The notes under the pieces are model-generated. The model saw only the letters and a program-made list of their open reading frames with translations. It had not been told where the DNA came from and searched no databases. This document shows positions 25,430 to 62,930 of a DNA stretch of 64,000 nucleotides, piece by piece. The translations under genes and the position numbers were made by a program. Location of the stretch: contig CAVOKF010000001.1 in assembly GCA_963696385.1 (NCBI GenBank), positions 224,001 to 288,000 on the forward strand. Direction: 5' to 3'. Source of the stretch: an uncultured delta proteobacterium. GTDB taxonomy: Bacteria > Myxococcota_A > Polyangia > Polyangiales > Polyangiaceae. Numbering within the stretch: the stretch's first letter is position 1; each line of letters opens with the position of its first letter.

Positions 25430-26101
25430 CTATCGGCCACCCAAAACCGCCCGGACGATCGCGCGCTGTCCCGCGAGAATCTCCGTGGCGCGCCCCAGAC
25501 CGATCTCGGCCGCGAGCGCTCTCAGCAGACTCTCGGCGCGGTCGCTGGTGCCCGAAGGCCGGCCGACCGTCGTCGGGCTGGGCTTGGGTGTCGGCTTCGG
25601 CGCGGTCGCGCTTTTCTTGGCGGCATTTCCCGACGAGCGGACGTTGTAGACGTAACCCACCCCAATCGGGATCCCGGCGGCGCCCGCCTTCTGCACAATC
25701 TGCTTGGGAGTCGAGTTCGGGAAGCGTCGCACGAAGTCCGCTTTGCTCTGGATGGGAGCGGGTTGCTTGGCGGAGGGCTTTGTGAGGCCGCGTGCGGGTT
25801 GAGCCGGAGCCTTCGTCACGGGTTTGGCCGGAGCCTTCGTCACCGGTTGAGCCGGCGCCTTCGTCAGGGGTTTGGCCGGCGCCTTCGTCAGGGGTTTGGC
25901 CGGAGCCCTCGTCACCGGTTGGGCCGGACCCTTCGGTTGCTTCCCCTTCGCTTTCGCTCGACCCCGAACGTTGTAGACGAGGCCCGGATCGATCGTTAAC
26001 CCAGAGGCTTTCGCCTTGTCGACGACCTCCGCGGCAGAGAGATCGGACGGCTGTTGGCGGATGAAGTCGGACTTGCTGACGGTGGGTTTCTCGGCGGCCA
26101 T
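25430..26101 (-). CDS. Lys/Ala/Pro-rich putative DNA-binding protein with a duplicated domain
   Basis: Two K..F(I/V)R..VYNVR domains, 24-bp repeats (TKAPAKPL/TKAPAQPV), and a C-terminal LAAEIGLGRA.EIL helix pair. Paralogue at 62562. Confidence 0.8.
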   Translation of the reverse strand: MAAEKPTVSKSDFIRQQPSDLSAAEVVDKAKASGLTIDPGLVYNVRGRAKAKGKQPKGPAQPVTRAPAKPLTKAPAKPLTKAPAQPVTKAPAKPVTKAPAQPARGLTKPSAKQPAPIQSKADFVRRFPNSTPKQIVQKAGAAGIPIGVGYVYNVRSSGNAAKKSATAPKPTPKPSPTTVGRPSGTSDRAESLLRALAAEIGLGRATEILAGQRAIVRAVLGGR

Positions 26102-26329
26102 AAGGGTGGTAGTTCAGCACGGGTCGGCCCGTCGGAGCAACATCCTCAATTCCGGACCTCCGTCCCCGCTCCTTCGAGCCGCGGCCAGACGGGCGGGTAG
26201 GGGGACCTGGATGCCGCTCTCACGGTTTTCGTGTTAGGTTGGACCGGTCCTGTGCCTGCGGGGCCCTCGGCGGCTTTTCGTCGCCGACGATCCGAATGGG
26301 GTCATGTTCAGGATGGGGACGAGGACACC

Positions 26330-26818
26330 ATGATGCCCGACTCCGTCCTCAAAGAGTCCCTTCGGCAGGAGCTCGTGGAGCTCTTGACGGCGGATCTCGC
26401 AACGCGAAGCCGAGCGTACCGGGCCGCCAGCGACGCGGCGACGCACGAAGAAGCCAAGCCCGAGAACGACAAGGACACCCGCGCCCTCGAGCAATCGTAT
26501 CTTGCCCGTGGCGAAGCGATGCGGGTCGAAGAGCTCCGATCGGCGCTGGCCGAGGTTCAATCCATGCCACTGCCTCGGCTGTCACCCATGGCCCCGGTTG
26601 GCCTCGGGGCGATCGTGTCCGTCGATGAAGCGGGGACCGCTCGGCATCTTTGGATCGCCCCCCACGGCGGGGGGGCGCTTCTCAGCGCGGGGAAGATCCA
26701 AGTCGTGACGCCGAAGTCGCCTGTGGGGCGTGCCCTCATCGGAAAGCGCGCGGGTGACGATTGCGAGATCGTGGTCGCGGCAAGGACGCGAGAGATCGCG
26801 ATCCTTGCTGTGCGCTGA
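26330..26818 (+). CDS. GreA/GreB-family elongation factor-like protein
   Basis: ATHEEAKPENDKDTRALEQSYLARG; VVTPKSPVGRALIGKRAGD. Confidence 0.85.
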   Translation: MMPDSVLKESLRQELVELLTADLATRSRAYRAASDAATHEEAKPENDKDTRALEQSYLARGEAMRVEELRSALAEVQSMPLPRLSPMAPVGLGAIVSVDEAGTARHLWIAPHGGGALLSAGKIQVVTPKSPVGRALIGKRAGDDCEIVVAARTREIAILAVR

Positions 26819-26835
26819 CGGGCCGTCTCCCCGCT

Positions 26836-26873
26836 GAGGTCGAGGTCGGGGTCGAGGGCCGACGTCGGGGTCG
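26836..26873. repeat. Short degenerate GAGGTC/GGGGTC array
   Basis: gaggtcgaggtcggggtcgag..gtcggggtcg between convergent genes. Confidence 0.7.
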
Positions 26874-26894
26874 ATCGCCGTTGACCCACCGTGG

Positions 26895-27638
26895 CTACCC
26901 CAGATACGTGGCGGAGGCCAGTTTATGAAAATTCTGAGTGAGCCACGTGCTCTGGAAATGGCGTCCGAAGGCCTGTTCGAAATACTCTCGCAATCGCTCC
27001 GCGGGTATCCAATTTCCGCGAACTTTCAGGACGCGCAGAGCATCGAGATGTTTGTGAGCTTCCGCCACCTGCAATAGTTTGATGACCTGCGATCGATCGA
27101 ACTTGAAGTAGCTCTGAATGGATCCGTCTTCCGAAGGGGCGTGGACGATGGTGTAAGTCAGTCCGATATTGCCCGTACAGGGATCGGAGCCGCACAAGCA
27201 AGGAATGGGCACACGCCTGTGCCAATGATAATCGATGGTGATTTCGTCTCCGGCGCGGATGGGGCGGACCGCTCGCATCATCAAGGCATCGGCGTCCCGA
27301 TACTTCTCCGTGATCGTGGTGTTCGGACGGCAAGAATGATTGGCGATGTGCCCTCCAATCTTCGCCGGATCCGGGCGAATGGCGAGAAAGCCTTCGGGCG
27401 TCGTCTTGTAGCTCATCGTGTATTCCGCGTCTTTGGAGTGACTGAAGACGTCCGCTTCTTCTTCGGTCGCAAAAACGGGAATAGTGATGGGCTCACCCAC
27501 GAAGGCGGCGACTAAATCGCCTTTCTTGTGATCGACCAACGAGAAAATACCTCGACCCTTGTCGGTCTGCCGGATTTCAATCCATGAATGATCGAGCGCC
27601 TGCTTGTATTTTTTGGTCTCTTGCCAGGGATGACTCAT
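26895..27638 (-). CDS. SET-domain protein-lysine methyltransferase with post-SET cysteines
   Basis: KGRGIF, ANHSCRPN, IRAGDEITIDY, CLCGSDPCTG. Confidence 0.9.
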   Translation of the reverse strand: MSHPWQETKKYKQALDHSWIEIRQTDKGRGIFSLVDHKKGDLVAAFVGEPITIPVFATEEEADVFSHSKDAEYTMSYKTTPEGFLAIRPDPAKIGGHIANHSCRPNTTITEKYRDADALMMRAVRPIRAGDEITIDYHWHRRVPIPCLCGSDPCTGNIGLTYTIVHAPSEDGSIQSYFKFDRSQVIKLLQVAEAHKHLDALRVLKVRGNWIPAERLREYFEQAFGRHFQSTWLTQNFHKLASATYLG

Positions 27639-27834
27639 CCTCGTGCCCCGTCGCCCGTCGCCCGGCTGACTTCGTGTCCGTCGGGCGACGCGAGGCACTT
27701 TACTCGCCTTGACGCCGGTGTGCACGCCCGTGCCCGTCTGGGCAAGGCCGGCGCCCCAGGCGCCCGCGGTACGCGACCGTCGGGCCTGCGGTCCGACCTT
27801 CGAGCGGTTCGGGCGGGGCCCCGCGACCGGGAAA

Positions 27835-29199
27835 TCAGCGCAAGTTCGACGCGTTCTTCCAGTGCTGGTCTTCGGAGCTCAGGGAGCCGTTTCCGAACAG
27901 GTACCGGAGGGTCAAGCTCGACTGAATGCCAAAAGGTGCCGTGTATCCCTGTTGTACCGCGGCGAGCATGCTCGCTTCGATTTCCTCCCGAGGATCGCTG
28001 TAGACTACGTTCGTGGGCTGAGCTTCGTTGACCGCTTTGTTGATTTGCTGCAGGCCGACCCACGGCGAGATGGTGAAGTTATCGGTGATGCGCCAGGTCG
28101 CCGACAGGCTCGCGGAGAAGCTGCGGTAATCGGCTTCCTCGATCAAGGCGGTTTCTCCGAGAGCGCCCGACACGTCGACCGGCGCGAAGTGCCAACTCAA
28201 GAAGATGTCGCAAAATTCACGTCCGACCATTTGATCGTCGATCCCTTGGATGTTCGTGACGTCGTAGCGCTCGAACTCGGGCCCGATCGCGCACCGGAAG
28301 CCGAAATTGCGCTGGTTTACCGTCTGCAACGGGACGAGATCGAACTCGACTCCGACCGACGCGTTCGCACGAAAATGGTAGTTGGCTTGCGGATTTTTCT
28401 CCGCGGACAGAAGCAGTCCGAGACTCCACCGCGTGTCCCCGGTGACCGCCCACGACAAGACGTTGGTCGCGTTTCCGCCCGCGAAATGAATGCTCGCCGT
28501 TTCCGAGGTGCCGGGAACCGGCTGGCTCTGCCGGCTGTAGTTTGCGCCGATCGATTGCTGGACCCTCCAGCCCGGTTCGGAATAGTTGAAGGACACGGTT
28601 GCGTTTCCTGCCGCGTTGATTCCCACCCCTTCGACATCGCTGAAGTACGTCCCGGCCGAGGGCACGACATACCACCGTAGGCTCTCTTGCTCCGGCCTTC
28701 CCGTATACGGGGGCGCTTGCGCCGGGTCGGCGACTTGGATGGTGAGCCGTCCGCCTTCGACCTTGGCTTCCGTCTTCTGTTCCATGAATTGAGCCAGGCC
28801 TCGTTCGAGCTTGGTCATGATGCGGACCGTCGCCGTCGTGGCGTCGATGCTGTCCGGGATCTTGTCGCTCGTCCGGACTTCGGTCGCGAAGCCGTTGACG
28901 TGCTTGCCGATGAAGCGGAACTCGAAGCGCGTGCCGCCCTCGGTGGGGACGCTCGTGAGCGAGACCACGACGCCAGCGTGTCTCGTGTCGCCCACCACGG
29001 TCAGAAACGGAATCTTGCTCGTGAGGCTGTTCTCGATGACCAAGCAGTCCACGCTGGCGCCCGGCAGATAACAGTCCCACTTCATCCGCAAATCGGCGCT
29101 TGCCGTCGGCGAGACGAACGTCGCGCAGATGGCCGCGAGGCGAGCGGTCCTTACCGCCCGGCCCCTCGGCCCGAAACCAGCGAACTCGACGAATCGCAT
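27835..29199 (-). CDS. Exported protein, probable outer-membrane beta-barrel
   Basis: Signal peptide ending ASA; alternating amphipathic strands; C-terminal LTLRYLFG. Confidence 0.7.
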   Translation of the reverse strand: MRFVEFAGFGPRGRAVRTARLAAICATFVSPTASADLRMKWDCYLPGASVDCLVIENSLTSKIPFLTVVGDTRHAGVVVSLTSVPTEGGTRFEFRFIGKHVNGFATEVRTSDKIPDSIDATTATVRIMTKLERGLAQFMEQKTEAKVEGGRLTIQVADPAQAPPYTGRPEQESLRWYVVPSAGTYFSDVEGVGINAAGNATVSFNYSEPGWRVQQSIGANYSRQSQPVPGTSETASIHFAGGNATNVLSWAVTGDTRWSLGLLLSAEKNPQANYHFRANASVGVEFDLVPLQTVNQRNFGFRCAIGPEFERYDVTNIQGIDDQMVGREFCDIFLSWHFAPVDVSGALGETALIEEADYRSFSASLSATWRITDNFTISPWVGLQQINKAVNEAQPTNVVYSDPREEIEASMLAAVQQGYTAPFGIQSSLTLRYLFGNGSLSSEDQHWKNASNLR

Positions 29200-29574
29200 C
29201 CCGAGGACCAGTACCGGACGCGACCCGAGGCGTGAAGCGGGGCTGGGGTGGCTCCGATCGGTGGGGCCCCGGGAGCTGCCCCGTCGAACGGCAGTCCCTG
29301 GATCGGGGTCGTGAGGCAGAGGCGCAAGGACGGCACGACGTTCGAAGCCGACGTCGCGGCGATCGAGACGGGGGACACCGACCGGGCGGCCACGATGATC
29401 CTGACCCGCGCCCCCGCCACGGTGTTACCGCGCTCGACCGGTTCCGCGGTTCAGCCCAGGCCGGCGGACCACGATCGTGGACCCTCGACGAGGGCCCGAG
29501 CCTCAACCGGGCCTGGGCATCGACGAATCGGCCGCGTGCCCTCGGGCGGGTCGCCCGGGGCAACGCCGCTCCTC

Positions 29575-30129
29575 TCAGGGGGAAGACGGTCCGGCCTTCG
29601 CCTTCGCGAACGCCTGTGCAAGGTCCAGAATCTGCTTCGCGTCAGCCGGGGAAAATGCCGCGACGCCGATGACGAAACCGTCCTTCGCCGGCCGCACGTC
29701 GATGTCCAACATCGCTCCGGAGATCCAGAACGGGTCGTTCGGAGTCGGCTGCGTCTGCCCGAGGGTAACTCGGGCATTGTGGCACTCGAGCTCCCGGTCG
29801 AGCCACTCGGCCGTGACGCCGGGAAGCGCGTTGATGGTTATTTTTGCGCCTCGAAGCTTACTGGTCTCACCGGATTTATCGGAATCGAAGGTGCTGTAGA
29901 GCGGCTCGACCTGCTGCACGGCCTTGCCATCGAGAATCGGCGCGATGGCACTGTCGGTGACCTCCGGACCGCAACGTGTGCGATCCGTGAATGCCGCTTG
30001 ATCGGCGGGGCCCTTCGCCGGCTCGCCGCAGCCGGCCGCCAGCGCGGCCGAAAGGACGGCCGCAAGGGCAGCGGCCTTTGCTGAAAGATGCAGTGCCCGT
30101 CGTTCGCCAATGGTTTCAGGGGTGATCAT
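29575..30129 (-). CDS. Hypothetical lipoprotein
   Basis: GGAGG RBS; LAAGC lipobox; PGVTAEWLDRELECH motif. Confidence 0.75.
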   Translation of the reverse strand: MITPETIGERRALHLSAKAAALAAVLSAALAAGCGEPAKGPADQAAFTDRTRCGPEVTDSAIAPILDGKAVQQVEPLYSTFDSDKSGETSKLRGAKITINALPGVTAEWLDRELECHNARVTLGQTQPTPNDPFWISGAMLDIDVRPAKDGFVIGVAAFSPADAKQILDLAQAFAKAKAGPSSP

Positions 30130-30615
30130 GGTTCCTCCAACAATGCCCGCTCGAGATCGGCCATCGCGATCCCTCGATCGCGATCGCTCGTGAGACGGAT
30201 TCAGGATGGCTTCTCCCCTCGGATCCAGAGACCGTGTCACTCGATAAGGCCGGTGGAGCCGCGATCCGGGAAGCGATAGGCAAGCAGAACGACCGGGCCG
30301 AGCGGCCCTGGTGGGTGCGACCGCCGCGCGTGGCGCGGGCGGGCCATTCGCCTGTTCCGTATCCCACGAGGTCGCACCGTAGACGGCCTCAACATAAAAA
30401 GAGCGCAGATTAGCCGGATGTCGTTATAAAGAATTCATCGAATGAACTAACGCGCATTGACGCCATGCCGGCGATGTCGCGTTGAAACCATGCCGACGCA
30501 TTCGCCAGGCACTGCGGGGGGTCGGCGCGCCGCCTATTGGGCATTCGCCAAGGGTCCACGATGCGTGTCATGACGTCGGCAACCGGCCGTCGCGCGGACC
30601 GCCGGGTCAGGAACA

Positions 30616-31389
30616 TCACGGGTGGATCGTCGTCGATTTCGCGATGGCGGGGGTCGAGACGGCGCTATCGAGATCGATCCGCTCCTGAAGGATCCGCAGG
30701 GCGTCCGCCGGATCGTCGGCGAAGTCGAACAGTCGCAGGTCCTCGGCCAGGATCATGCCGCGGCGAACGAGGGCGTCGAAGTCGACGATTTCGTGCCAGT
30801 ACGAGGAGCCGTAAAGCAGCACGCAGATCCGCCGATCGAGCTTGCGAGTCTGCGCGAGCGTGAGCATCTCGAACACCTCATCGATCGTGCCGAAGCCGCC
30901 GGGAAAAGCGACGATGGCGCGTGCGAGGTGCGAAAACCAGAGTTTTCGCATGAAGAAGTAGTGGAACTGGAACGTCAGCTCCGGCACGAGGTAGGCATTC
31001 GGGCGCTGTTCGTGCGGCAGTCCGATGTTGAGGCCGATCGTGCGGCCCCCGGCTTCCACGGCGCCGCGGTTGGCCGCCTCCATGATTCCACCGCCGCCGC
31101 CCGAGCAGACGACGAGCCGATTTCGATCGCCGGGCAGCGATCGCGACCACTGGGTGACGATCCGCGCCAAGCGGCGTGCGTCCTCGTAGTAGCGCCCCAT
31201 GGGGCCGTCCTCTTGCAGCCGCGATGACCCGAGAAAGACCACCGTGTCGTGTACGCGCTCGCGGGTGAAGGCGGCGAGCGGTGCCAGGTATTCCGAGAGG
31301 ATCCGGACGGCGCGGGCATCGTCGCTCTCGAGAAAGTGTGCGTCGCGGTACGCAAGCGGTGGATCGGCACGTGAAACCGGGTCGGTCAT
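30616..31389 (-). CDS. LOG-family (TIGR00730-like) nucleotide phosphoribohydrolase
   Basis: SGGGGGIMEAANRGA, FHYFFMRK, PGGFGTIDE. Confidence 0.92.
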   Translation of the reverse strand: MTDPVSRADPPLAYRDAHFLESDDARAVRILSEYLAPLAAFTRERVHDTVVFLGSSRLQEDGPMGRYYEDARRLARIVTQWSRSLPGDRNRLVVCSGGGGGIMEAANRGAVEAGGRTIGLNIGLPHEQRPNAYLVPELTFQFHYFFMRKLWFSHLARAIVAFPGGFGTIDEVFEMLTLAQTRKLDRRICVLLYGSSYWHEIVDFDALVRRGMILAEDLRLFDFADDPADALRILQERIDLDSAVSTPAIAKSTTIHP

Positions 31390-31628
31390 GGTCGCCGGCC
31401 GAACGTAGCTTGTCGCGCGGGACCGTGACCATCACCGTTGTCGGTGCCCCGCCCATGGCTGCCTGGCCCGAACGTGTGCAACATCATGAGCCACGGGCTC
31501 GTGCTCGCGATCCTCGTTTCGCTCGCCGGCCTGCTCGTGCGGGTCCCGTCATGGCGTTCGGGCTTTTCGTGGGACGGGTCCAGGCCTACATCTTCGCGAT
31601 GCTCGCGACCGTGACCTCCGTCGCGAGA

Positions 31629-31976
31629 TCACGGCGTCGGTGCGGGCACCCATCCGCCCGGCACGAGCCGATAGGAGCCGTCCGGATCGTGCTCCCAGTG
31701 AGCGGGAGACCACGCGTAACCAGGCTGGAGTGCCATCCAGCGGCCCTCGATCCAGACCCACTGTTGGTTCTCGAGGGTCCAGTAGCCGGGCTGCCAGGCG
31801 TATCCGGGCCGCGGCTCCGGCACGTACACCACGCGCGGAGGGGGCGGCTGGGCTGCACTGACCACGGCCGCGGTCACGATGGCGGTGCCCACGATCGCAG
31901 GAAAAAGGCCGGCCCCGCGCACCATGCACGCCGAGCCCGCCCACGTCAGCAGGAAGAGAACAGGCGCCCATCTCAT
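31629..31976 (-). CDS. YXWGXW-repeat lipoprotein
   Basis: GSAC lipobox; PGYAWQPGYW, WVWIEGRW, GYAWSPAHW. Confidence 0.8.
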   Translation of the reverse strand: MRWAPVLFLLTWAGSACMVRGAGLFPAIVGTAIVTAAVVSAAQPPPPRVVYVPEPRPGYAWQPGYWTLENQQWVWIEGRWMALQPGYAWSPAHWEHDPDGSYRLVPGGWVPAPTP

Positions 31977-32054
31977 GGCCGCCTCGGCTGCAAGAAGCGT
32001 GCTTCGCCGCGGCTGGTTGTTCGCGGCGCGATTTTCGACTTGCAGGCGCAATCG

Positions 32055-32600
32055 TCAAACCAAGGCCACGGTGCTCGCGTGCGGCCCGGTTTCTCCCGTG
32101 TCTTCGACGAAACGCACCCGGTCGCCGACCTTGAGACGGTCGAATGCCGCGTCGAGGACGCTATTTCGGTGGAAATACAGCTCGTCGCCTTCCGCGGTCC
32201 CGAGAAAGCCGAAGCCCTCGTAGGGGAACAGCTTGGTCACGTGACCGTGGCGCGACCGCTCGTGGGCCTTCACGTCGCCGCGCCGGCGCCGCACGAAGTC
32301 TTGCAGCCGTCGATCGATGTCGTCGAAGGCCGAGTCGACGGCCGCGTAGAGATCCTCGTAACTCTTCGCGTCGTCCGGTGATCGCACCGCGACGACTTCT
32401 CCGCCGGGTAGCGTCACGTCGATGCGAACGCGATAGTGTTCGCCGTGCCGAGCATGATGATGAGGCATCTCGAGCGCCACCCGGCAGGACGTGAGCCGGT
32501 CGGCCAGCAACTCGAGCTTGGCCGCGCGCGTCCGCACGTAGTGCTCCACCGCGTCCGAGTGCGGCACCCCATGGAACGTGATCTGGAGGGGGATCTGCAT
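32055..32600 (-). CDS. HPF/RaiA ribosome-associated protein fused to a cold-shock domain
   Basis: MQIPLQITF, DLYAAVDSAFD; CSD motifs GFGFL and LYFHRNSV. Confidence 0.9.
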   Translation of the reverse strand: MQIPLQITFHGVPHSDAVEHYVRTRAAKLELLADRLTSCRVALEMPHHHARHGEHYRVRIDVTLPGGEVVAVRSPDDAKSYEDLYAAVDSAFDDIDRRLQDFVRRRRGDVKAHERSRHGHVTKLFPYEGFGFLGTAEGDELYFHRNSVLDAAFDRLKVGDRVRFVEDTGETGPHASTVALV

Positions 32601-32833
32601 GACTCTCGCATGCGTAAGCAAGTCTCACGCCTTGCCGTGTCCGGGCCTATCCAAAGCGTCGTGGGATCTTCGCGGACGCAAGCTTTGCGGCCATCCGCAA
32701 GACACGAGTCGATCCGCGCGACGCGATCCCGCGCGAAGCCGACCTGTGCAGGACGACCGCGGCGTTTCCCGGTCCGCGTTGGGGTGTGCATTCGCGGGTA
32801 GGTGGTCGTCACGAAGGCACGATCGATCGGCTG

Positions 32834-32849
32834 TGGAACGATCGTTGCT
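32834..32849 (+). promoter_or_regulatory. Putative sigma-54 promoter
   Basis: TGGAACG-ATCG-TTGCT. Confidence 0.6.
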
Positions 32850-32928
32850 GTACGCCCGATCCCGTCGCTGTCACCGAACCAGGAGGCGCCGTCGTGAATC
32901 GGAAAGCCGCGTGGGTCCTATGCGTCGC

Positions 32929-34150
32929 ATGATGGAGAAGGAGCCTGTCCGGAGTGCGCGCTCGCAGATCTCCGCGGCACTCATGCTGAGCTTTGCCGAG
33001 CGGACCGGGCTGACGGCCTCGAGCGGCGGTCGTCGCTATTTACTGGACGGACGCCTTTGCGGTCTGCATGTTCCTGGGGCTTGCTCGTGCCACGCGCGAC
33101 AAGCGCTACGCAGACCTTGCTCTCCGGTTGGTTGACCGCGTGCATCACGGCCTGGGACGCCACAGAGCCGATGATGCGCGCAGGGGCTGGATCAGCGGGC
33201 TCGGCGAGCCGGAAGGCAGCGCCCATCCTACGCTCGGTGGCTTGCGCATCGGCAAGGGCTTCCCGGAACGGGCGCCCGGACAACCGTTCGATGAATCGGC
33301 CGAATGGGACCGCGATGGGCAATATTACCATTACCTGACGAAGTGGATGCACGCCCTTGACCAGACGAGCCGCTTTTTCGCGGCACCCAAGTTCAATGTC
33401 TGGGCGTGCGAACTCGCCCAAACCGCCCACGCCGCGTTCGTGTACGGCGGCCCGGGCGAGGGCCGTCGCATGTACTGGAAGATGAGCATCGACCTCAAGC
33501 GTCCGCTCGTGCCGTCCATGGGTCAGCACGATCCGCTCGACGGCTACCTCACCTGCCTGCAGCTCGAGACCACCGCTGCGGCGTTACGCGCCGGCGATTC
33601 GCCGGACCTGCGTGGCGAGGTCTCCGACTTCGCCCGCATGTGCGTCGGTCGCGATCTGGCGACGACCGACCCGCTCGGCATCGGCGGGCTCCTCGCGGAT
33701 GCGTACCGGGCCGAACAGATCCGTCCGGCAGGGATGCTTCCGCACGCCGCGCGGGTCGACGATTGGCTGCGCGCGGCGGTCGTCGGGCTCGAACGGCGCC
33801 GTTGGCGGAGCGAGCTCCAAGAGACCGCCGAGAACCGCCTCGCGTTCCGCGAGCTCGGTCTCGCCATCGGTCTGCAAGCCGCGGCCGGTCTGCGCGGCGG
33901 CGCCGGAGGCGGCGATCCACGCAGCAGCTTGCTCGAGGCTCTGCGGCGTTTCGAGTGGCTTCGCCCGGAGATTGAGGCTTTTTGGCTCGATCCCCGTCAT
34001 CAAACGGTCCGGTCGTGGACCGAGCATCGCGACATCAACGAGGTGATGCTTGCAACGAGCCTGATGCCGGAAGGCTTCCTGCGGCTCGACCCGGTCCACG
34101 ATCGTGGGTCTGAATCTGTGCCCGATGCTGAGCTCGCCCAACTCCGCTGA
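32929..34150 (+). pseudogene. Conserved hypothetical protein (RYLWTDAF / DGQYYHYLTKW family) with a +1 frameshift at 33043
   Basis: CGC TAT TTA C TGG ACG GAC GCC TTT: removing one C joins FAERTGL..RRYL to WTDAFAVC and the 33068 ORF. Confidence 0.75.
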
Positions 34151-34151
34151 T

Positions 34152-34195
34152 TCGGGGTCGAGGTCGGGGGTAGGTCGAGGTCGGGGTCGGGGTCG
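34152..34195. repeat. Short GGGGTC/GAGGTC array
   Basis: tcggggtcgaggtcgggggtaggtcgaggtcggggtcggggtcg, directly after a stop codon and between convergent genes. Confidence 0.8.
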
Positions 34196-34230
34196 CTACC
34201 GCGGATCCCGCGCCTTGGACGGGAGCGCCG

Positions 34231-53372: not shown

Positions 53373-53702
53373 TCAAACCACCGCGTCCTTGATCGCTTTG
53401 ACGGGCCGCGCCTTCACGCCCTTGCTCGCGGGCTTGGCCGCAAACTTCTGCTTCTCTTTCGTAAAGGGATTGATTCCCTCCCGCGCAGGGCGCGCGGGCT
53501 TTTTGACCACGACGAACTTGGCGAATCCCGGCAGCACGAAGACACCGTTTTTCTTCAGTTCCCGATGACCCACTTCGACGAGCGTCTCGACGACTTGAGC
53601 CACTTGTTTTCGGGAAAGCCCATCGCCGATGGTCTCGGTGACTTCTTGGAGGACCGCGCTCTTCGAGAGGGGTTTCTTCTTCGCCGCCGTCGTCTTTGCC
53701 AT
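53373..53702 (-). CDS. HU-family DNA-binding protein
   Basis: AAGGAG RBS; FVLPGFAKF..KPARPAREGINPFT..AKPA..P.KA.KD. Confidence 0.92.
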   Translation of the reverse strand: MAKTTAAKKKPLSKSAVLQEVTETIGDGLSRKQVAQVVETLVEVGHRELKKNGVFVLPGFAKFVVVKKPARPAREGINPFTKEKQKFAAKPASKGVKARPVKAIKDAVV

Positions 53703-53920: not shown

Positions 53921-53936
53921 CGGCACGACAATTGCT
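53921..53936 (+). promoter_or_regulatory. Sigma-54 promoter (near consensus)
   Basis: CGGCACG-ACAA-TTGCT. Confidence 0.75.
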
Positions 53937-53969
53937 TTATGGAACGACGGCCAACGAATGGAGGCCCCT

Positions 53970-54827: not shown

Positions 54828-54945
54828 CCGAACGAGGGCGGTGGCGACCGGCCACGCGGGACGGATTCCTTCCGGCACGCCGCCGCGGCACGCCAAAGCC
54901 CACCGTCGGCGGCTGCGGTTCCGGCAAGCCTTCGTCCGGCTCGGA

Positions 54946-56295
54946 TCAGGCGCGTTGCCTCGATGCGCCGCGACGGCGGCGGCCGAGGAGCAGCCCGGCG
55001 AGGCCAGCGGCAACGAGCTCCGAGCCGTTCGCGCGCACCGAGGTCCCCGATGCGCTGCACCCCTTGCTTGATGGCCCGGCCTTCGGGACCTGGGCTGTGC
55101 CGGCGTCGGAGTCCCCACTGAGCACGCACGTGCCTTGATCGCAGGTGTAGCCCGTGTCGCACGGATTGGCGGCGTCGTCGCAAGCTTCGCACGTGAAGTG
55201 GACGCCGTCGTGCGACAGACAGTTCTCGGAACAGCACTCACCATCGGCGCCGCAGGCCGCGGCGTTCGATAGACACGACGAGGAGATTGGGGCTCCCGAT
55301 TCGCCGGTCTGACCCGCTCCGGCATCGAAGGTCGCGGCCCACGCGGGCGTCGCGTATCCGCCGAGCTGCGCCGCTTGCACGGCCGTTTGCAGGATCAACG
55401 GTCCCCACGCGTCGAAGCGTGTGTAGATGGGATCGATGCATGTGGAGCCGTCGGCGTCGTTCGATCCGCGCGATAGGACTCCAAAGCTAAGCGGCACCCC
55501 TGCGTTGAAATTCGTTTGTTCGAAGGCACCCGAGCCCGAATCGCCGTCGCATGTCCCCCCGCTCGCCACGAATTCGTTGGGCGAGAGGAAGTCGGCCGAC
55601 GCATCCGATAGGCAGCTCGGAAGAGTCGAGTCGTTGGAAAGGCAAACGACGTCGAGGTCTTGAACGATGCGTCGCGTGCCGGCCGTTTCACTCGTGGTGT
55701 CGGCGGGAGTGGTGACGCCGTATCCAATCGCGGTAAATTTCGTCGAATAAACGCCGTCGGTCATGGGAGGACTGATGACCGGCGTCACGTATTGGGGTGC
55801 TGAAATCGGTTGGGAGAGAATCAAGAGCGCCAGGTCGTTTCCGCAGAATGTGGACTGGCCGACGCCGGACGGCACGACGATCTTCTGGACCGAAGACCAC
55901 TGGGCGTCGGGGTCCACGATGCTCGTGTCGCTCGTGACGTCGATGGATTCGGGCGCGACGGTCGTGCCGAAAGCCGTGACGTCGCACGCGACGGGCTGCG
56001 GAGTGGCTGGCGCGACGCAATGGCGAGCCGTAGCGACCAGGTTCGGCGCGAGAAGCGACCCCGTGCAAATGGCGATTTCCCCGGGCTGCGCTTGCGCCTC
56101 GACGACCGCGACGACGAACGTATCCGTCGTGTCGGTCGTACCGCCCTGGATCGGCAACGCTTCGGAAGCCGTGACTTCCGGATCCGGATGGGGCCCGCTG
56201 CACGCACAGACCGTCGCCAGGGCGAACACGAGCGCACCGGCGCTCAGCCGGACGATTCCACGTTTGCGACGGCTCGACGGAGTCGGAGGAGGCAT
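54946..56295 (-). CDS. Trypsin-like (S1) serine protease with a Cys-rich domain and MYXO-CTERM-like tail
   Basis: CTGSLLAPNLVATARHC, DLALL, CDGDSGS; tail GCSA..LAGLLLGRRRR. Confidence 0.9.
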   Translation of the reverse strand: MPPPTPSSRRKRGIVRLSAGALVFALATVCACSGPHPDPEVTASEALPIQGGTTDTTDTFVVAVVEAQAQPGEIAICTGSLLAPNLVATARHCVAPATPQPVACDVTAFGTTVAPESIDVTSDTSIVDPDAQWSSVQKIVVPSGVGQSTFCGNDLALLILSQPISAPQYVTPVISPPMTDGVYSTKFTAIGYGVTTPADTTSETAGTRRIVQDLDVVCLSNDSTLPSCLSDASADFLSPNEFVASGGTCDGDSGSGAFEQTNFNAGVPLSFGVLSRGSNDADGSTCIDPIYTRFDAWGPLILQTAVQAAQLGGYATPAWAATFDAGAGQTGESGAPISSSCLSNAAACGADGECCSENCLSHDGVHFTCEACDDAANPCDTGYTCDQGTCVLSGDSDAGTAQVPKAGPSSKGCSASGTSVRANGSELVAAGLAGLLLGRRRRGASRQRA

Positions 56296-56706
56296 CCCCG
56301 GACTAGGGGTCCATTCCGCAAGTCGCGCGAATAAATAAGCGCAATGGTTCTTGCGGGATGGGCGTGCCGTGCGGTCGATGAATTCGCAATGCCTTACAGA
56401 CTTACGGGAGGCCGGTGTTCGAGGCAAGAGGCCCGGAGGGCGGTTCCGGCGGTAAAGGCAGTTCTTGCTGTAAACGTTCAATGAGCATTGAATCGTTTCG
56501 CATCGCCGGCGTCGGGCCGAGTGGCCCGGAGACCGTTTCCCAGCTTAGCCAAATCTTTCGGGTCGAGTTCGTTCGAATCGACACGCGAAGTCGCGCCTCC
56601 GCGAGAGGGCTCCGGCCCCGCCGCGTTCGTTCGGGAGAAGAACGGTCGCCGAAGGCGGTGGTTGCCACGTGACGGACGCCGCGATCCGCTATGAGCTGTC
56701 GCCCCG

Positions 56707-57990
56707 ATGCTCCCTGCGTTGTCGCCCTTCCTGCAAGCCGTTCCCGCGGCCGTTGTTGCCGAACCTCCTCTCGACGTGCGCGAACCCCCCTTCGGCGAGT
56801 TCGACTTCAGCTGGATGAACGGCAGCAACCCTCAGCCGCCCTCCCTTCTAGGCATGGGTCCGCTCACCTGGTCGCTTTACGTCGACACGTACTTTGCGTG
56901 GGACTTCAATCGTCCTGTCGACCACACGATCTTCCCTACGACCGTCGCACCTCGCCACGATGAGATCTCCCTGAACCTCGCCCACATTGGGATCGACGTG
57001 ACCGGTCTCGACGGACCGACTGGCCGTCTTTACCTCCAGTACGGATCCATGGTCGAGACCATCGCGGGACAGGACACGACGACGACGCGCGGCTTCTTTC
57101 TAACCAATCGCCTGATGCAAATCGTGCAGCAAGCGGCGGCTGGATGGCATTTTCACGCTCTGCACGGCGTGAACGTCGAGCTCGGCATCTTCCCGTCCTA
57201 CCTCGGCCTCGAGAGCTATCTGCCGGAGGAGAACTGGGCCTATACGCACGCATTCGTGGCGGACGCCACGCCGTACTACTTTTTCGGATTTCGCGGCCAA
57301 ATCTTCACCTCCGCGCGTATGAAAGTCGAGCTTTGGGTCGTCAACGGTTGGCAGACGTTCGGAGAATGGCACGAAGGCCGGGCGGGCGGTTATCTGTGGA
57401 ACTGGCGCCCCCACGACTGGTTTTCGATCGTCAACTCGCTCTACCTCGGCCAGGAGGCTGAGGGCGATCCGGATTCACTCCGGACCTATTCGGACAACAA
57501 CGTCCAGTTGCGTTACTACCACGATAAAACGAACCCCATCTTGCGTTCGCTCGCGTTCTCGCTCGTTGCGGACCTGGGCTACGAGCATCGCGGCAACGCC
57601 CCCTCCGGGGCCATGGGCGGCATTTCTCTGTCGCATCGCTGGGAGTGGACCGAGCGGTGGAAGAGCACGCTGCGCGCGGACTACTTCTACGACAAGACCC
57701 AGGCTATTTCGCCGAAGTTCCCGGTCGGCTCGGTGTACCCGTGGAAGGGCACCGACCCGTTCGCGGCCGCTGGACTGTCGACGACGCTCGACTACTGGCC
57801 GAGCCCCTGGCTGGTGACACGCCTCGAGGCTTCGCATCGCCTCGCGAATCAGCCGCTATTTAGCGGACCAGGGGGGATTACGGGGCCTGGCGGGCAGCTG
57901 CCGGTCAACGCGGCGGCGGCGGCGACGTTCACACCCGACTTGCGGCGGACCGATAATCGGATTCTGTTCAACGTCACGCTGAGGCTTTGA
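56707..57990 (+). CDS. Outer-membrane beta-barrel porin (BBP2/DUF1597-like)
   Basis: DFSWMNG, YVDTYFAWDFNRP, GIFPSYLGLESY, DATPYYF.G, VNGWQ. Confidence 0.8.
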   Translation: MLPALSPFLQAVPAAVVAEPPLDVREPPFGEFDFSWMNGSNPQPPSLLGMGPLTWSLYVDTYFAWDFNRPVDHTIFPTTVAPRHDEISLNLAHIGIDVTGLDGPTGRLYLQYGSMVETIAGQDTTTTRGFFLTNRLMQIVQQAAAGWHFHALHGVNVELGIFPSYLGLESYLPEENWAYTHAFVADATPYYFFGFRGQIFTSARMKVELWVVNGWQTFGEWHEGRAGGYLWNWRPHDWFSIVNSLYLGQEAEGDPDSLRTYSDNNVQLRYYHDKTNPILRSLAFSLVADLGYEHRGNAPSGAMGGISLSHRWEWTERWKSTLRADYFYDKTQAISPKFPVGSVYPWKGTDPFAAAGLSTTLDYWPSPWLVTRLEASHRLANQPLFSGPGGITGPGGQLPVNAAAAATFTPDLRRTDNRILFNVTLRL

Positions 57991-58192
57991 GACCGTCTTT
58001 CGGTGTTCGCCTCCAGGTGCCTACCGCGAGCGCCCGTTCTTGCGATCGCGTTCGGCACGGGATAGCGGCCCCGTAGCGAATGGTGGCCCGGCAAGGACCT
58101 CCTAGGGCCCCGGCAAAGGCGGGCCGAAGGCCGGCGCTCGAGCCTGGAGGTGATTGTCGCGCGCGGACGAAGTGCTAGATACGGCTCGACCC

Positions 58193-58837
58193 ATGAGGCG
58201 GGCAACGGTCGGGTGCGGTTGCGCGGCTGTCCTGGCATGGGCGTCGATCGCGCAGGCCGTCGATGTGGATGGCAGCGCGGCGGGCTGGCTGGGCGCGTTT
58301 CATCCCGAAGCGGCCGCTCGGATAACGTACGGCCCGCTCAGCAGCATGGCCTCGGCGTTCCCCTTGGCGGGCGGCGGCATCGGCGCCCGCGTCGGACTGT
58401 CGTATCTCGGCCTGTACGGTGGCCTGTCGTACACGGACTACTTTTCGGAGGGGAGCTGCCTCGACAGTACCGGCCTTAGCTGTGGGTCCACGCACGGGCG
58501 CTCCTTCGGTCTCGAAGGCGGCTACAGTCGTACTTTTTTTCGGATGTGGATGGTCCGCGCGCAATTCGGCATCGGCGATTACCTGATGACGAGCGAAAGC
58601 ACGAGCATGGCGGCGTGCCCTGACGTCGCATGTTCGACAACCATGACGATATCGTCGCAGTCTTCGACGAATAGTATTTACTTTCAACCCGAAATTCTGT
58701 TTGCGCTGACGCTGGGGCCCGTACTCCTGGGTCCCGACGCGAGTCTCTTTTATATACCCAGCCCCGCCATTTGGGACGGTACGGGACGGCCCTTCGTGGC
58801 GTGCATGATGGGCCTGCAATTGGGCATCCGGCTGTAG
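58193..58837 (+). CDS. Small outer-membrane beta-barrel-like protein
   Basis: Signal peptide ending AQA; GIGARVG strands; terminal LQLGIRL. Alternative TTG start at 58154. Confidence 0.65.
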   Translation: MRRATVGCGCAAVLAWASIAQAVDVDGSAAGWLGAFHPEAAARITYGPLSSMASAFPLAGGGIGARVGLSYLGLYGGLSYTDYFSEGSCLDSTGLSCGSTHGRSFGLEGGYSRTFFRMWMVRAQFGIGDYLMTSESTSMAACPDVACSTTMTISSQSSTNSIYFQPEILFALTLGPVLLGPDASLFYIPSPAIWDGTGRPFVACMMGLQLGIRL

Positions 58838-58940
58838 GGGCGTGAGCGAGAGGGAAGGGGTCTCGAGAAGTCGCAAGATGGGCGCGTCTCGGTCCGCGGG
58901 GGCCGGGCCCCACCCTCCCCCTCGCGCAGTCCCCGCGCCA

Positions 58941-59537
58941 TCAGTGCGGCAATGGCTGCGAGCGACCGAGCACTGCAAAGTCCCGTCCGTCCCAGCGGAT
59001 GTGGCACACCTCGCCGTTCGCGACCGGCGGGGGCAACGTCCCGGTCGCGGCGTGCACGAACGCGCGAATGGCTCCACCATGCGCCACGACAATTGCCGCG
59101 GCGCCCTCGTGGGCAACCCGCTCGGCGACCTCGGCGAGGGCGGTCGTCATCCGGGCGGCGACGCGCGCCGTATCTTCGGCGTCCGGCGGCGGCCGCCGCT
59201 CGGTGACCCAGAGGCGCCAGGCTTCGGCATGCCGCTCTTCGCACTCTTCTCGCGTGAGCCCTTCGAAGCATCCAAACGATCGCTCCCGCAGCGCCGGATC
59301 GACGTACGCGAGCGGCACGCCCAGGGCCTCGGCGACGACACGCGCCGTCTCGCTCGCCCGTGCGAGATCGCTCGCGACGACGCCCGCCACCGCCACCCCT
59401 CGCAGCGCTCCCGCGATGGCCAGCGCCTGAGCACGCCCTGCCGCGTTGAGCGCCACGTCGGTTTGACCTTGCCACCGGCGCGCCGCGTTCCAATCTGTCT
59501 CGCCATGGCGCGCGAGGTAAATCAGTCGGTTCGGCAT
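58941..59537 (-). CDS. Histidine phosphatase (phosphoglycerate mutase family)
   Basis: RHGETDWN, SDLARA, LRERSFG, VAHGG. Confidence 0.93.
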   Translation of the reverse strand: MPNRLIYLARHGETDWNAARRWQGQTDVALNAAGRAQALAIAGALRGVAVAGVVASDLARASETARVVAEALGVPLAYVDPALRERSFGCFEGLTREECEERHAEAWRLWVTERRPPPDAEDTARVAARMTTALAEVAERVAHEGAAAIVVAHGGAIRAFVHAATGTLPPPVANGEVCHIRWDGRDFAVLGRSQPLPH

Positions 59538-59632
59538 CGTTCACCTACGGTGTGTGCGCCGCGCGGACGCTAGCATCCGTGTCTCTCCGATCGAGCGGGA
59601 GCTCGCGCCGGCTCTTGCGATTGGCCGTCCGC

Positions 59633-61108
59633 TCACGGCGATAGTGCCCGGCAGGGCGAGACGGGCTCGGACGCCAGGAGATCCGAAACACATCGTTTGC
59701 GGGCACGTCGTGAGACGATGCGAGTGTCCGCACGTCTCCGGTCAGCGGCACGAGGGGGAGCTAGCGGCATCTGGTCGGCCGGCGTCACGCACGACGACAG
59801 ATTGAACACGAGGAACTCGAGCGCCGTCTCTTGCGGCGACAGGTCGCCCGTGGCGCATTCATCCGGCACGGGCAGACTGGGGTTGTCGTTCGACGCCGCA
59901 CCGACGTGCATGGCCGTGTAAACGACCTGCCCGCACTGGCTCGGGGTCGGCGCGTCGAGTGGCGTGTTGAACGAGAAAGCCTGCGAGGCCCCGGGTGCGC
60001 TCGCGTCTGCGTCCGCTACCAGCCAGGACTGGGACGCTACGTTGGCCGGCGACAGGTCCGCGTTGTCACGCGCTTGCTCGACGGGAAGCTCTGCGTTGGC
60101 AAGCAACGCGCCCACGGTGCCGAGCCACTGTGCCAGCGCGTTGCCCTTCGCGAACGGCGCTCCATTCGGGAGAGTCGTCGTCACCACGGTGTCGATGTCG
60201 CCGATGTCGCCCTTGCCGGGCAGCCAGGTCGCCAGATTCCAAGTCCCGAACGGCCCGGTATCGAACCAGGCGTAGTGGAAGTGAGACGCAAACACGCGAC
60301 CACCGGACGCCGCATAATCGAAGAGCGCCTGTTGGTTCATGTTCGATGTCTCTTGCCCTTCGCAGGAAAGAAACACCATGTCGTAACGCCCGAGGTCAGC
60401 GACGGAGTCCCAGAGCGCGATCGCGCTGCTTGGCGCGGGATCGGCCGTAGTCGGCGCACTCTCCCCTCCGATCTTGCCGGTGCCCTGAAACACGTGGATC
60501 CGTCCGGCGCCCAACGGGTCGCCGGTGTACTCGCTCGCGTCGACGCCGATACGCCGAAACAGGCACTCAAGCGTGTCGGAACCGCCTGTCGAGACGGCGA
60601 TGGCAGGGATGTCCCCTTCGCTCTGGTTTTTGGGCAAGGTGAGCGACCCGTCCGCAAGCGGGTTTTCCTGGCAAGCTACGACCGTGGGAATTCGGAGCTG
60701 GCGGCGCCATTTGCCGATCTGCAGAACGAGCGGCACGTCCTTGCCCGGTGGCACGTCGTTCAGAACGAACTGTCCTGCTGCGTCGGTCAAGGTCGTGGTG
60801 ATCGGGCTGCCGGTGTACAGGTCCGAGCACGAGTCGCATGTGGCGCCCGAGGGCAGGGGAGCCGGAGCGCTTCCCGGCACATAGACGACGACGTTGTAGA
60901 GCGGATTGTGCCCCGCCGGATCGTAGACCGTGCCGCGAAGCGTGGTCGATTGGCCGTCGCAGGCGGGCACAGGGCTCTGCGCGGGGACCGCGCACGCGGG
61001 AGGCGCGTCGTCGAAAAGCAAGAGGCCCGTTCGAGCCCCACACGAACTCGCGACGAGCGCGACGGATACCCGGCCAAAGAGCAAGGCGTACGATCGGCGG
61101 GTCCCCAT
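59633..61108 (-). CDS. Lipoprotein with a carboxypeptidase-regulatory-like domain
   Basis: ASSC lipobox; GTVYDPAG.NPLYNV.VYVP, IGKWRR, GGRVFASHFHY, LSPQE.ALEF..FNLSSC. Confidence 0.8.
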   Translation of the reverse strand: MGTRRSYALLFGRVSVALVASSCGARTGLLLFDDAPPACAVPAQSPVPACDGQSTTLRGTVYDPAGHNPLYNVVVYVPGSAPAPLPSGATCDSCSDLYTGSPITTTLTDAAGQFVLNDVPPGKDVPLVLQIGKWRRQLRIPTVVACQENPLADGSLTLPKNQSEGDIPAIAVSTGGSDTLECLFRRIGVDASEYTGDPLGAGRIHVFQGTGKIGGESAPTTADPAPSSAIALWDSVADLGRYDMVFLSCEGQETSNMNQQALFDYAASGGRVFASHFHYAWFDTGPFGTWNLATWLPGKGDIGDIDTVVTTTLPNGAPFAKGNALAQWLGTVGALLANAELPVEQARDNADLSPANVASQSWLVADADASAPGASQAFSFNTPLDAPTPSQCGQVVYTAMHVGAASNDNPSLPVPDECATGDLSPQETALEFLVFNLSSCVTPADQMPLAPPRAADRRRADTRIVSRRARKRCVSDLLASEPVSPCRALSP

Positions 61109-61364
61109 GGGGCGCGAGTATGCCTCTCGGTGGCCTTTTGCGCGACGAGGCTCGAGCTCGCACTCGACGTTATGTGCGCACAAGAGATCGACCGCGCTGG
61201 CGGAAGGTCAGCGATCCCCCCATCGCGTGCCGTCACAATCGTGCGCTGCCGAAAGACCCACGCGAACGCGCTCGACCGCGTCGGTCTGGATCGAAAAGGT
61301 GCCGGGGGTCGGATCCGGCGATCCGGCCGGGGTGGACTGCGTGCGGCCGTCCGGCGAAGCGCTC

Positions 61365-62003
61365 CTATTGGCCGACGATGATGGGGGCGCCGTAGAGGGG
61401 ACGGATTGAGATGCGATCCTCGACGTGGGCGTCGATGGGGGCGGCGGAGTCGAGACTTGCGTATGCGTCGTCGCCGCCGGCGTCCTGGGTCACGTCGGCA
61501 TCCGCGGGGACGGCAGAATCGAGGCGGGCGCTGGCGTCGTCGGCGCCGGCGTCCTGGGTCAGGTCGGCATCCGCAGGGACGGCAGAATCGCGACGGACCC
61601 CCGCGTCGTCGGGGCCGCCGTCTATGGCCACGTCGGCGTCTACGGGACCGGCAGAATCGAAGCCGCCGCGGGCGTCGCCCGGGTACACCGGGGTCACGTC
61701 GGCGTCCGCGGGCACGCCCCCGTACGGAGGAAAGAATGTGGACGACCCCGGCATCGGACCGCCGTCCTTGTCTGTCTCGGCCGCCGAGAATGGGTTTGCA
61801 CAGGCCGCTGCGGTGGCGGCGAGCGCTCCCACGCCCAAGGCATGGAGGGCCGCGCGACTCAGGCGCTTGGCCGGCGATGAGGGCGGCGGTGGCAGCTGCC
61901 GAAACGACGAGGGCAAGTCGGCCCGGCAAAACGGACAGGCCGGCTCGCTGACCCGAACGTGCCGGGCGCAATGGGGACAAGCGGCCAACGGAGTCCCGGT
62001 CAC
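61365..62003 (-). CDS. CxxC-RH..CPFC protein with YGxP motifs and internal acidic repeats
   Basis: GGAGG then GTG; CPHCARHV..CPFC; hydrophobic segment ending AAAC; PPYGGVP and LYGAP; DSA.P.DAD repeats. Confidence 0.8.
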   Translation of the reverse strand: MTGTPLAACPHCARHVRVSEPACPFCRADLPSSFRQLPPPPSSPAKRLSRAALHALGVGALAATAAACANPFSAAETDKDGGPMPGSSTFFPPYGGVPADADVTPVYPGDARGGFDSAGPVDADVAIDGGPDDAGVRRDSAVPADADLTQDAGADDASARLDSAVPADADVTQDAGGDDAYASLDSAAPIDAHVEDRISIRPLYGAPIIVGQ

Positions 62004-62290
62004 GTGCGACCTCCGTTGGATGCAGGCTCGGCGAGTATCGCGAATGCCCCGCGCTCGAGCGGCGCTCCGCAGGCCCGGATGACGGGGCCCAGCCGCCCTC
62101 GCATGCCTGCGGCCGCCATGTCGATGGCGCGTGGCCGCCACAACGGGTTGTTCTCCGGCTTGCCGACCGTGACGATTCTCGTCCACGAGCCGTCTTTCAT
62201 GTGCTCCTCGCCATGGGAATCGAACCTCTGCCGTTCAAGGACAGCACGTTCCGCGCGGCACGACCATAGGTCCAACACCGCCTCCTTTGA
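62000..62290 (-). pseudogene. Degenerate C-terminus of a radical SAM/SPASM protein
   Basis: SWT..GKPENNP...RA.DM...G.R.RL..V....GAP.ERG.F.I..EP resembles from memory the C-terminus of the Y_X(10)_GDL-associated rSAM family. Its TGA overlaps the next GTG. Confidence 0.55.
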
Positions 62291-62561
62291 GTGCCGAGCG
62301 GGCAGCCACGATGGGGATCGGGGCGTAGGCGGACGGCACACAGTGGCGCAGCGAGCCGGCGGCAGCAAATGCGCTTTTGGGCATCGGCGTCGCCGCAGGC
62401 CGCCTCGACGATAGGACCCGAGCGCGCCGGCGGATGGATCCGCGGAACGTACGCAGCGGAAACTGGAAGCCGACGCCCGCGCACCTTTCTACCGAGGAGA
62501 TCCAGTTTGGCATGGTGCATGACCTCATACACGGCTACAGACGCTCTCCAGGAGATCCAAC

Positions 62562-62930
62562 ATGGCAGTCAAAACAGCACCCACGCAAACCAAGGCAGCT
62601 TTCGTGCGTTCCGTCGATCCCAGGTTGTCCGCCAGGGACGTGATCGCCAAGGCCAAGGCGGCTGGGATTACCCTCACAGACACCTACGTCTACAACGTTC
62701 GCGGGGCGGCCAAAGCCTCCGCGAATGCCAAAGCCACGTCGAACAAGGTGACCGCGAAGCCAGCGGCATCGACCAAGACATCCGGTGCCCCCCCGGTGGT
62801 GAACAACAGTGCGAGCACGTACTCCGTCGAATCGCTGCTCAAGGCGGTCGCGGCCGAGATCGGTCTCGGACGAGCGTCCGAGATTCTGGCGGGCGAAAGG
62901 GCCAGGGTCCAGGCCGTGCTCGGGGTTTGA
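62562..62930 (+). CDS. Lys/Ala-rich putative DNA-binding protein, paralogue of 25430-26101
   Basis: AGGAG RBS; TKAAFVR..VIAKAKAAGI..YVYNVR; ESLLKAVAAEIGLGRASEILAGER. Confidence 0.85.
   Translation: MAVKTAPTQTKAAFVRSVDPRLSARDVIAKAKAAGITLTDTYVYNVRGAAKASANAKATSNKVTAKPAASTKTSGAPPVVNNSASTYSVESLLKAVAAEIGLGRASEILAGERARVQAVLGV

Follow-up and report, generated by a model that had tools for sequence, protein, structure and literature searches.

A Polyangiaceae protein family built of basic three-helix domains and a C-terminal hairpin: candidate nucleoid-associated DNA binders

The window analyzed here is a stretch of 64,000 nucleotides from the genome of an uncultured delta proteobacterium of the Polyangiaceae, a soil myxobacterium (GenBank assembly GCA_963696385.1, contig CAVOKF010000001.1, positions 224,001 to 288,000). 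Two of its genes, P0001 and P0002, encode small basic proteins in which one or two predicted three-helix domains ("heads") are joined by disordered linkers to a C-terminal helical hairpin ("tail"). With moderate confidence, the family to which both belong is read here as a multivalent, nucleoid-associated architectural DNA binder, as suggested by the charge of the proteins, the resemblances of their predicted folds and the domains to which they are fused. The genes, their domain anatomy, predicted folds and charge, and the selection pattern, distribution and fusions of the family are established in the present analysis.

An original prediction, made by a model from the sequence alone, had proposed two paralogous open reading frames sharing a basic domain, and both were found exactly where it had placed them (Table 1). 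Their codon-position GC contents (0.65/0.58/0.79 in P0001 and 0.58/0.56/0.76 in P0002) are those expected of genuine coding frames in a genome of 65-66% GC. BLASTP aligned the second head and the tail of P0001 with the whole of P0002 (E 1e-26; 58 of 120 residues identical, 48%), and the first head of P0001 produced a separate match to the P0002 head (E 1e-10; 21/42 identical). Judged by these alignments, P0001 carries two copies of the head of about 45 amino acids (aa) and P0002 a single copy, as predicted, with a similarity far beyond chance. The C-terminal modules (about 37 aa), said to be near-identical, shared 26 of 32 residues in a manual count, and the 8-aa Lys/Ala/Pro repeat of P0001 was recovered at the DNA level by Tandem Repeats Finder as an array with a period of 24 bp, 5.9 copies and 85% matches. 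AlphaFold2 models were computed with an alignment of 115 rows for P0001 and of 65 rows for P0002. In both proteins the heads were modeled as three-helix units (predicted local distance difference test, pLDDT, approximately 89-96 by block), the linkers as disordered and the tail as a two-helix hairpin (83-90); together with the charge pattern described below, the models support the proposed modular anatomy with basic, disordered linkers.

Table 1. Coordinates of the two genes, their modules and other features mentioned in the text (window positions unless a contig or locus is named; pI, isoelectric point; HMM, hidden Markov model)
Feature	Position	Strand	Residues	Description	AlphaFold2 helices (residues); block pLDDT
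P0001 gene	25430-26101	minus	223 aa	pI 11.1; head1 - repeat linker - head2 - linker - tail	
P0001 head type 1	25952-26086	minus	6-50	three-helix bundle; head1 HMM E 1.3e-23	10-16, 23-32, 39-54; 91-96
P0001 linker 1	25757-25951	minus	51-115	Lys/Ala/Pro/Thr-rich, contains 8-aa repeats	no secondary structure; 44-62
P0001 tandem array	25795-25935			24-bp repeat	
P0001 head type 2	25622-25756	minus	116-160	three-helix bundle; head2 HMM E 6.4e-19	120-125, 132-141, 148-165; 89-96
P0001 linker 2	25547-25621	minus	161-185	basic, disordered	44-59
P0001 C-terminal tail module	25436-25546	minus	186-222	helical hairpin; tail HMM E 6.7e-16	187-199, 203-221; 83-90
P0002 gene	62562-62930	plus	122 aa	pI 10.3; head2 - linker - tail	
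P0002 head type 2	62580-62717	plus	7-52	head2 HMM E 6.1e-19	11-17, 24-33, 40-61; about 90
P0002 linker	62718-62816	plus	53-85	disordered, fast-evolving	<50 at residues 59-86
P0002 C-terminal tail module	62817-62927	plus	86-122	tail HMM E 1.7e-18	89-99, 103-120; 84-88
Paralogue	C7:722046-722648			head1-head2-tail	
Paralogue	C2:73648-74091			head2-tail	
Paralogue	C7:1309453-1309821			head2-tail	
Paralogue	C4:117300-117644	minus		head2-tail, scrambled first helix	
Paralogue	C8:778850-779248			head1-tail	
Split paralogue	C7:719567-720168	minus	192 aa; 77 aa	two heads in one frame (192 aa), tail in another (77 aa)	
P0307	C8:664508-666682 (L052:4509-6680)	minus	724 aa	SNF2-family ATPase with family tail (about 37 aa) at its end	
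Tandem family pair	L054 (G230:C11):1301-1747 and 2096-2530	minus		two single-head members	
Fur-family regulator	24818-25351	plus		convergent with P0001	
GreA/GreB C-terminal-domain protein	26231-26818	plus		divergent from P0001	
HU/IHF-family gene (PF00216)	53379-53666	minus			

The same anatomy was seen when domain typing was applied to 306 stored proteins of the family. Two heads followed by a tail were present in 198 of them, three heads and a tail in 43, one head and a tail in 39, four heads and a tail in five and five heads and a tail in one, and the other 20 had heads with no detected tail. The tail, where detected (286/306), was always single and C-terminal, and the two head subtypes occupied fixed positions, the order head1-head2-tail being observed in 179 of the 306. 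Some of the members with no detected tail carry a diverged C-terminal hairpin at the same place. Among them, P0310 matched the tail profile in a single-sequence search (E 5e-6), and P0311, P0309 and P0314 gave values of 0.05-0.15, below significance. The tandem pair at locus L054 shows long tracts of the AAKP/KKAA type and a C-terminal hairpin that has diverged; the tail profile still matches just one of its two members, which suggests a tail of greater age and variability than the profile reflects.

Charge statistics were calculated for the same proteins excluding five fusion proteins. The heads have a mean net charge of +5.2 (n=350) and +4.8 (n=284) per approximately 45 aa, and the linkers, composed largely of Ala (23%), Lys (17%), Thr (12%), Ser (11%) and Pro (10%), carry +22 net charges per 100 aa (n=614). 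The tail is close to neutral (mean +0.2, n=283), with Ala, Leu, Gly, Glu and Arg prominent in its composition. About ten hydrophobic positions are conserved along its 37-aa hairpin, many positions are more than 90% conserved, and no other part of the family shows conservation as high. Family alignments show conserved heads and tail and a drifting linker, in agreement with the substitutions between P0002 and its 91% identical orthologue (P0003, locus L025): five synonymous and one non-synonymous changes in the head, two and one in the tail, and two and nine in the linker (residues 51-87), all of these being small counts.

The claim that the proteins belong to no named family was borne out by every library searched. 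At E<=10, P0001 and P0002 had no match in Pfam, either as whole proteins or as each module alone, and neither matched PHROGs or PADLOC; a profile search of the sequences in the PDB returned a best E of 0.78. Two NCBIfam rows, GreA for P0002 (E 0.027, with 14 bits where the cutoff is 234) and DnaX for P0001 (E 6.8), were dismissed as noise. When the 115 members of the alignment were compared with Pfam at E<=1, the matches were scattered, sub-threshold and inconsistent (LEA_2 in 11 members, IF2_N in 10, DBF4_BRCT in 10, NikA-like in 4), and they were rejected as evidence of kinship. A protein atlas held unnamed Myxococcota clusters only, along with a weak HTH_Tnp_Tc3_2 lead (16% of one cluster, score 0.87), and no paper on the family was found in the published literature, as judged by titles and abstracts. 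We regard the family as novel in both its domains and its architecture, and as belonging to the wide group of small, basic proteins of nucleoid type.

These data bear on one alternative, namely that the proteins bind some other polyanion or structure, such as RNA, ribosomes, polyphosphate or the surface of storage granules, in the manner of phasins with H1-like tails, and that the hairpin is an amphipathic anchor or docking element. A strong positive charge combined with a neutral, hydrophobic, amphipathic tail would suit such a role, and so would the IF2_N matches (best E 0.0068). These matches, however, like the remaining Pfam rows, are sub-threshold and inconsistent, and the isolated modules yielded none; moreover, neither granule nor ribosome genes lie nearby, and the known fusion partners of the family all act on DNA rather than on RNA or granules. 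We therefore consider this alternative quite improbable.

The fold of the heads was compared with known structures by two independent tools. Foldseek against the PDB and BFVD returned nothing at E<=1e-3, every E being at least 0.16, and its weak top rows were Fur, PadR, Zur and EspR. VIA-align, which does not depend on Foldseek, was run against 48,161 chains; its best matches, both to 4xvn_A, the N-terminal DNA-binding domain of a phage small terminase, reached Z 5.3 (root mean square deviation 2.8, 51 aligned residues) and Z 5.1 (2.9, 52 aligned), in a range (Z<8) which according to the tool may reflect chance. As judged by their titles, about 40 of the top 50 VIA-align rows were tri-helical DNA-binding domains, among them small terminase, sigma region 4, LuxR-type, homeodomain, Myb/SANT, Tc3/mariner, TrpR, ArgR and Fur domains, and many of the helix-turn-helix (HTH) rows had Z values of 3.6-5. 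The tail was barely covered, with two VIA-align rows at Z 3.9-4.3. The fold searches are thus consistent with the HTH-like head of the original prediction and do not establish it, no match being significant (VIA-align Z <=5.3, Foldseek E>0.1).

The family is large and taxonomically narrow. A word-indexed search with P0002 (E<=1e-3) retrieved 309 proteins of similar length and 49 longer ones, nearly all recorded as "hypothetical protein", and those with a named source came from Polyangiaceae metagenome bins. A profile of the 115 members, run against 1.84 billion cluster representatives (50% identity), gave 2229 matches at E<=1e-3, 937 at 1e-10 and 161 at 1e-30. In a sample of the phylum, 11 of 301 species-representative genomes had a match, and all 11 belong to the GTDB family of the window. 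The original prediction had proposed counting paralogues across the Myxococcota; this count gave matches in 63 of the 201 genomes of that GTDB family (the genome of the window included) and in 36 of its 89 genera, with one to nine or more matches per genome, and in none of the 277 phylum genomes outside it. As 11-16 first-look candidates were scored per genome, all of these counts are lower bounds. Among the genomes searched, the family is confined to one GTDB family. The 27 loci with named records all trace to peat and soil bins of uncultured Polyangiaceae or Myxococcales, and several of these bins have six or more loci. A distant two-head member, P0309, comes from a named species, Pendulispora brunnea; it is recorded as "hypothetical protein" and bears the automatic UniRef name "Histone H1". 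At one locus (L017) a 770-aa open frame around the match was rejected as a high-GC artefact, the real gene encoding a head and a tail in approximately 95 aa.

Within the genome of the window, the domain HMMs built from alignment A1 were run over the six-frame translation of all eight contigs, and 8 head-bearing loci with 11 heads were found, together with 9 confident tails (Table 1). P0001 and P0002 are a related pair, as the original prediction had stated; its count of two paralogues was too low. One of the loci (C7:719567-720168), in which the heads and the tail lie in different frames, represents a pseudogene with a frameshift or results from an assembly error, a programmed shift being a remote possibility. 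The intact two-head paralogue on the same contig is located some 2 kb away, in divergent orientation. In the C4 copy unrelated residues have taken the place of the first helix, as would result from two frameshifts that compensate each other; the remainder shows approximately 87-89% DNA identity to two sister copies, and the same variant N-terminus is present in the database proteins P0043 and P0073. A mobile-element origin of the single-head paralogues was considered and rejected, the duplications being gene-sized (approximately 590-780 bp, 86-89% identity) and having no shared element ends.

The only fusion partners found were GerE/LuxR HTH domains (P0169, P0171 and P0282) and the SNF2-rel_dom and Helicase_C pair (P0307 and P0308). 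All of these fused domains act on DNA, which lends some support to the reading of the family as DNA binders. The three LuxR-type fusions, large proteins from metagenomes, each have a pair of HTH domains of the GerE/LuxR type in addition to family heads (two or three) and a tail, and P0169 and P0171 have an additional region of approximately 200-250 aa with no assigned domain. P0307, encoded in the genome of the window, provides the ninth tail found there; its SNF2 core is generic and falls below every NCBIfam cutoff. Its neighbors are an IS66 transposase fragment, AbiEii, HEPN and two Uma2 genes, and the region looks variable and rich in defence or mobile elements. A search for tails among long proteins returned one cluster, P0308 (912 aa, 20 sequences); the search works by shared exact words, so that the scarcity of matches is weak evidence.

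The presence of one and the same tail on such unrelated proteins (SNF2, LuxR-type), reminiscent of targeting peptides, may also be explained by assuming that the tail docks onto a single shared partner (RNA polymerase, a condensin or a protease, for instance) and that the heads are protein-protein or regulatory modules. The conservation of the tail, higher than that of any other part, agrees with this scenario. We nevertheless hold it to be very improbable: no gene for a candidate partner is linked to the family, the charge of the heads and their fold resemblances point to nucleic acid, and the hairpin may be read at least as easily as half of a four-helix bundle.

Gene neighborhoods were compared at 36 family loci, and no recurrent neighbor genes were found; stand-alone genes are usual for nucleoid proteins. 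This result is relevant to a further alternative, in which the family consists of sequence-specific transcription regulators, the HTH heads reading defined operators, the tail serving as a dimerisation hairpin and the paralogues controlling separate regulons. HTH-like three-helix heads, the expansion of paralogues within single genomes, two conserved head subtypes in a fixed order and fusions to LuxR-type regulators would all be expected of such proteins. At the 36 loci, however, there was neither a conserved neighboring target nor a divergent partner; tandem heads on long, fast-evolving and highly basic linkers are typical of binders of low specificity and uncommon among specific regulators; and the heads of the paralogues are very alike, which argues against differing specificities. 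On balance we consider specific regulation unlikely.

Under the reading that we favor, that of an architectural DNA binder, one to five basic three-helix heads, carried on flexible linkers rich in Lys, Ala, Thr, Ser and Pro and ending in an uncharged hairpin, would each contact DNA in HTH fashion, and the basic linkers would contribute non-specific electrostatic affinity. The tails may pair with other tails and in this way hold several heads together, and the joined heads could then bridge or coat the DNA; the H-NS/Lsr2-like bridging of the original prediction would depend on such pairing. The shared tail may also bring the SNF2 ATPase and some of the LuxR-type regulators to the same scaffold. 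DNA binding, self-association of the tail, bridging and any effect on transcription are the parts of this scheme that we infer, and the silencing role named in the original prediction is purely conjectural. An additional and more far-reaching scenario is that the tail acts as a pairing code, by which up to eight multi-head, H1-like paralogues would co-assemble into mixed scaffolds coating or bridging DNA, with an SNF2-type ATPase and LuxR-type regulators tethered to them in some lineages; this we regard as a long shot.

Several observations weigh against an architectural role. None of the modules has significant homology to a DNA-binding family, so that DNA binding is deduced indirectly, and all fold matches lie below the noise levels of the tools themselves. 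Three-helix bundles are a very common arrangement, and in the AlphaFold2 models the loop between helices 2 and 3 of the head is approximately 6 residues long, longer than the classical HTH turn. The best local Foldseek matches span the first helices of Fur and not what we take to be its DNA-reading helix. The presence of up to 8 copies per genome and of position-specific head subtypes fits specific regulators equally well. The genome also has 7 matches to PF00216, corresponding to 6-7 HU/IHF-family genes, none of them at P0001 or P0002. The SNF2-tail combination, found in a single protein cluster, appears to be an oddity of one lineage and not a trait of the family. Finally, the RNA evidence presented below comes from contigs alone, in which carry-over of DNA is possible.

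Comparison with known systems places the family nearest, in its presumed function, to the bridging proteins of the H-NS, Lsr2 and MvaT type, of which the original prediction had named H-NS and Lsr2 as analogues, and to the H1-like Lys/Ala/Pro proteins of bacteria, without making it a member of either group. Like the bridging proteins, its members are small and connect a nucleic-acid-binding module (here putative) by a flexible linker to a module that may mediate self-association, and they are encoded by stand-alone genes with several paralogues in one genome. They have no sequence relation to H-NS or Lsr2: P0001 and P0002 match neither PF00816 nor PF11774, and PF00816 is not among the 25 Pfam families listed, of 55 matched by the 115 members (E<=1). 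In H-NS an N-terminal coiled-coil oligomerisation domain precedes a linker and a C-terminal DNA-binding domain; in the family the heads are N-terminal and the helical hairpin C-terminal, so that the order is reversed, and the heads number one to five in tandem, against a single one in H-NS and Lsr2. The DNA-binding domains of H-NS and Lsr2 are small mixed folds with an AT-hook-like loop, whereas the family heads are predicted three-helix bundles. Neither PF00816 (H-NS) nor PF11774 (Lsr2) was matched anywhere in this 96%-complete genome, and the niche of these proteins thus appears to be vacant in it. The two proteins also differ from HU/IHF, with no match to PF00216, a domain encoded by one other gene of the window, itself among the 7 such matches of the genome.

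With linker histone H1 and the H1-like proteins of bacteria the family shares the combination of a globular helical domain with disordered repeat segments rich in Lys, Ala and Pro, a likeness of composition and not of homology. Lys/Ala/Pro-repeat proteins of this kind include chlamydial Hc2, the tail of mycobacterial HupB/MDP1, Pseudomonas AlgP and the C-terminus of PhaF. In contrast to H1/H5, there is no match to their winged-helix globular domain (the Pfam Linker_histone family), and the head is composed of three helices with no beta wing; the basic segments lie between domains and not at a terminus, and the conserved C-terminal hairpin has no counterpart in H1-like proteins. The head has the size and three-helix topology of tri-helical HTH domains, which account for most of the weak structural matches, and differs from them in having no significant match, no sequence relation and a longer loop between helices 2 and 3. 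To our knowledge, the grammar of tandem heads with a portable tail has no known counterpart.

Ribbon-helix-helix proteins include CdbA, a nucleoid protein of Myxococcus (PMC7156744). The helix, Gly-containing turn and helix of the family tail give an impression of the helix-helix part of ribbon-helix-helix dimers, and weak Pfam matches to families of this type were recorded among the members of the alignment (NikA-like in 4 of the 115, best E 0.0031; CcdA in 2). In contrast to that fold, the family hairpin is not preceded by any predicted or conserved beta strand, and isolated tails had no Pfam match at E<=10.

P0001 is flanked by genes for a Fur-family regulator and a GreA/GreB C-terminal-domain protein, a pairing which did not recur at other family loci, and P0002 lies beside genes for a histidine phosphatase and a porin. 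No functional link between either gene and its flanking genes was found in the window neighborhood. Transcription was assessed in four metatranscriptome runs from two studies, in which 6-10% of the sampled words of window positions 21000-30000 were found. Contig pieces from the RNA libraries covered the 3' part of P0001 exactly in X2 (25433-25633) and X3 (25331-25582), with 0 differences each; a piece in X1 (25426-25527) had 5 differences and is perhaps from a paralogue, and in the run X4 no piece was found over P0001. These data are a weak hint that P0001 is transcribed; contigs give no level and cannot rank expression, and parts of the stretch with no RNA-contig cover carry no meaning.

The architectural proteins that bind bacterial DNA are specific to particular lineages and have mostly been found clade by clade, as were H-NS, Lsr2, MvaT, Rok and the bacterial histones. 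Little is known about the nucleoid proteins of Polyangiaceae-type myxobacteria, which combine genomes of very large size with a complex development. The occurrence of P0309 in Pendulispora brunnea makes the idea directly testable in a cultured species. Even if no DNA binding were found, a large unannotated group deserving domain definition would remain. If binding and bridging hold true, the known means of organizing a bacterial chromosome would be extended by a novel kind of domain and by a novel architecture, in which tandem heads are combined with a C-terminal pairing hairpin; and should the tail act as a pairing code, the result would be a bacterial "chromatin" peculiar to this lineage, equipped with a remodeller of its own and made up entirely of domains none of which has a named family.

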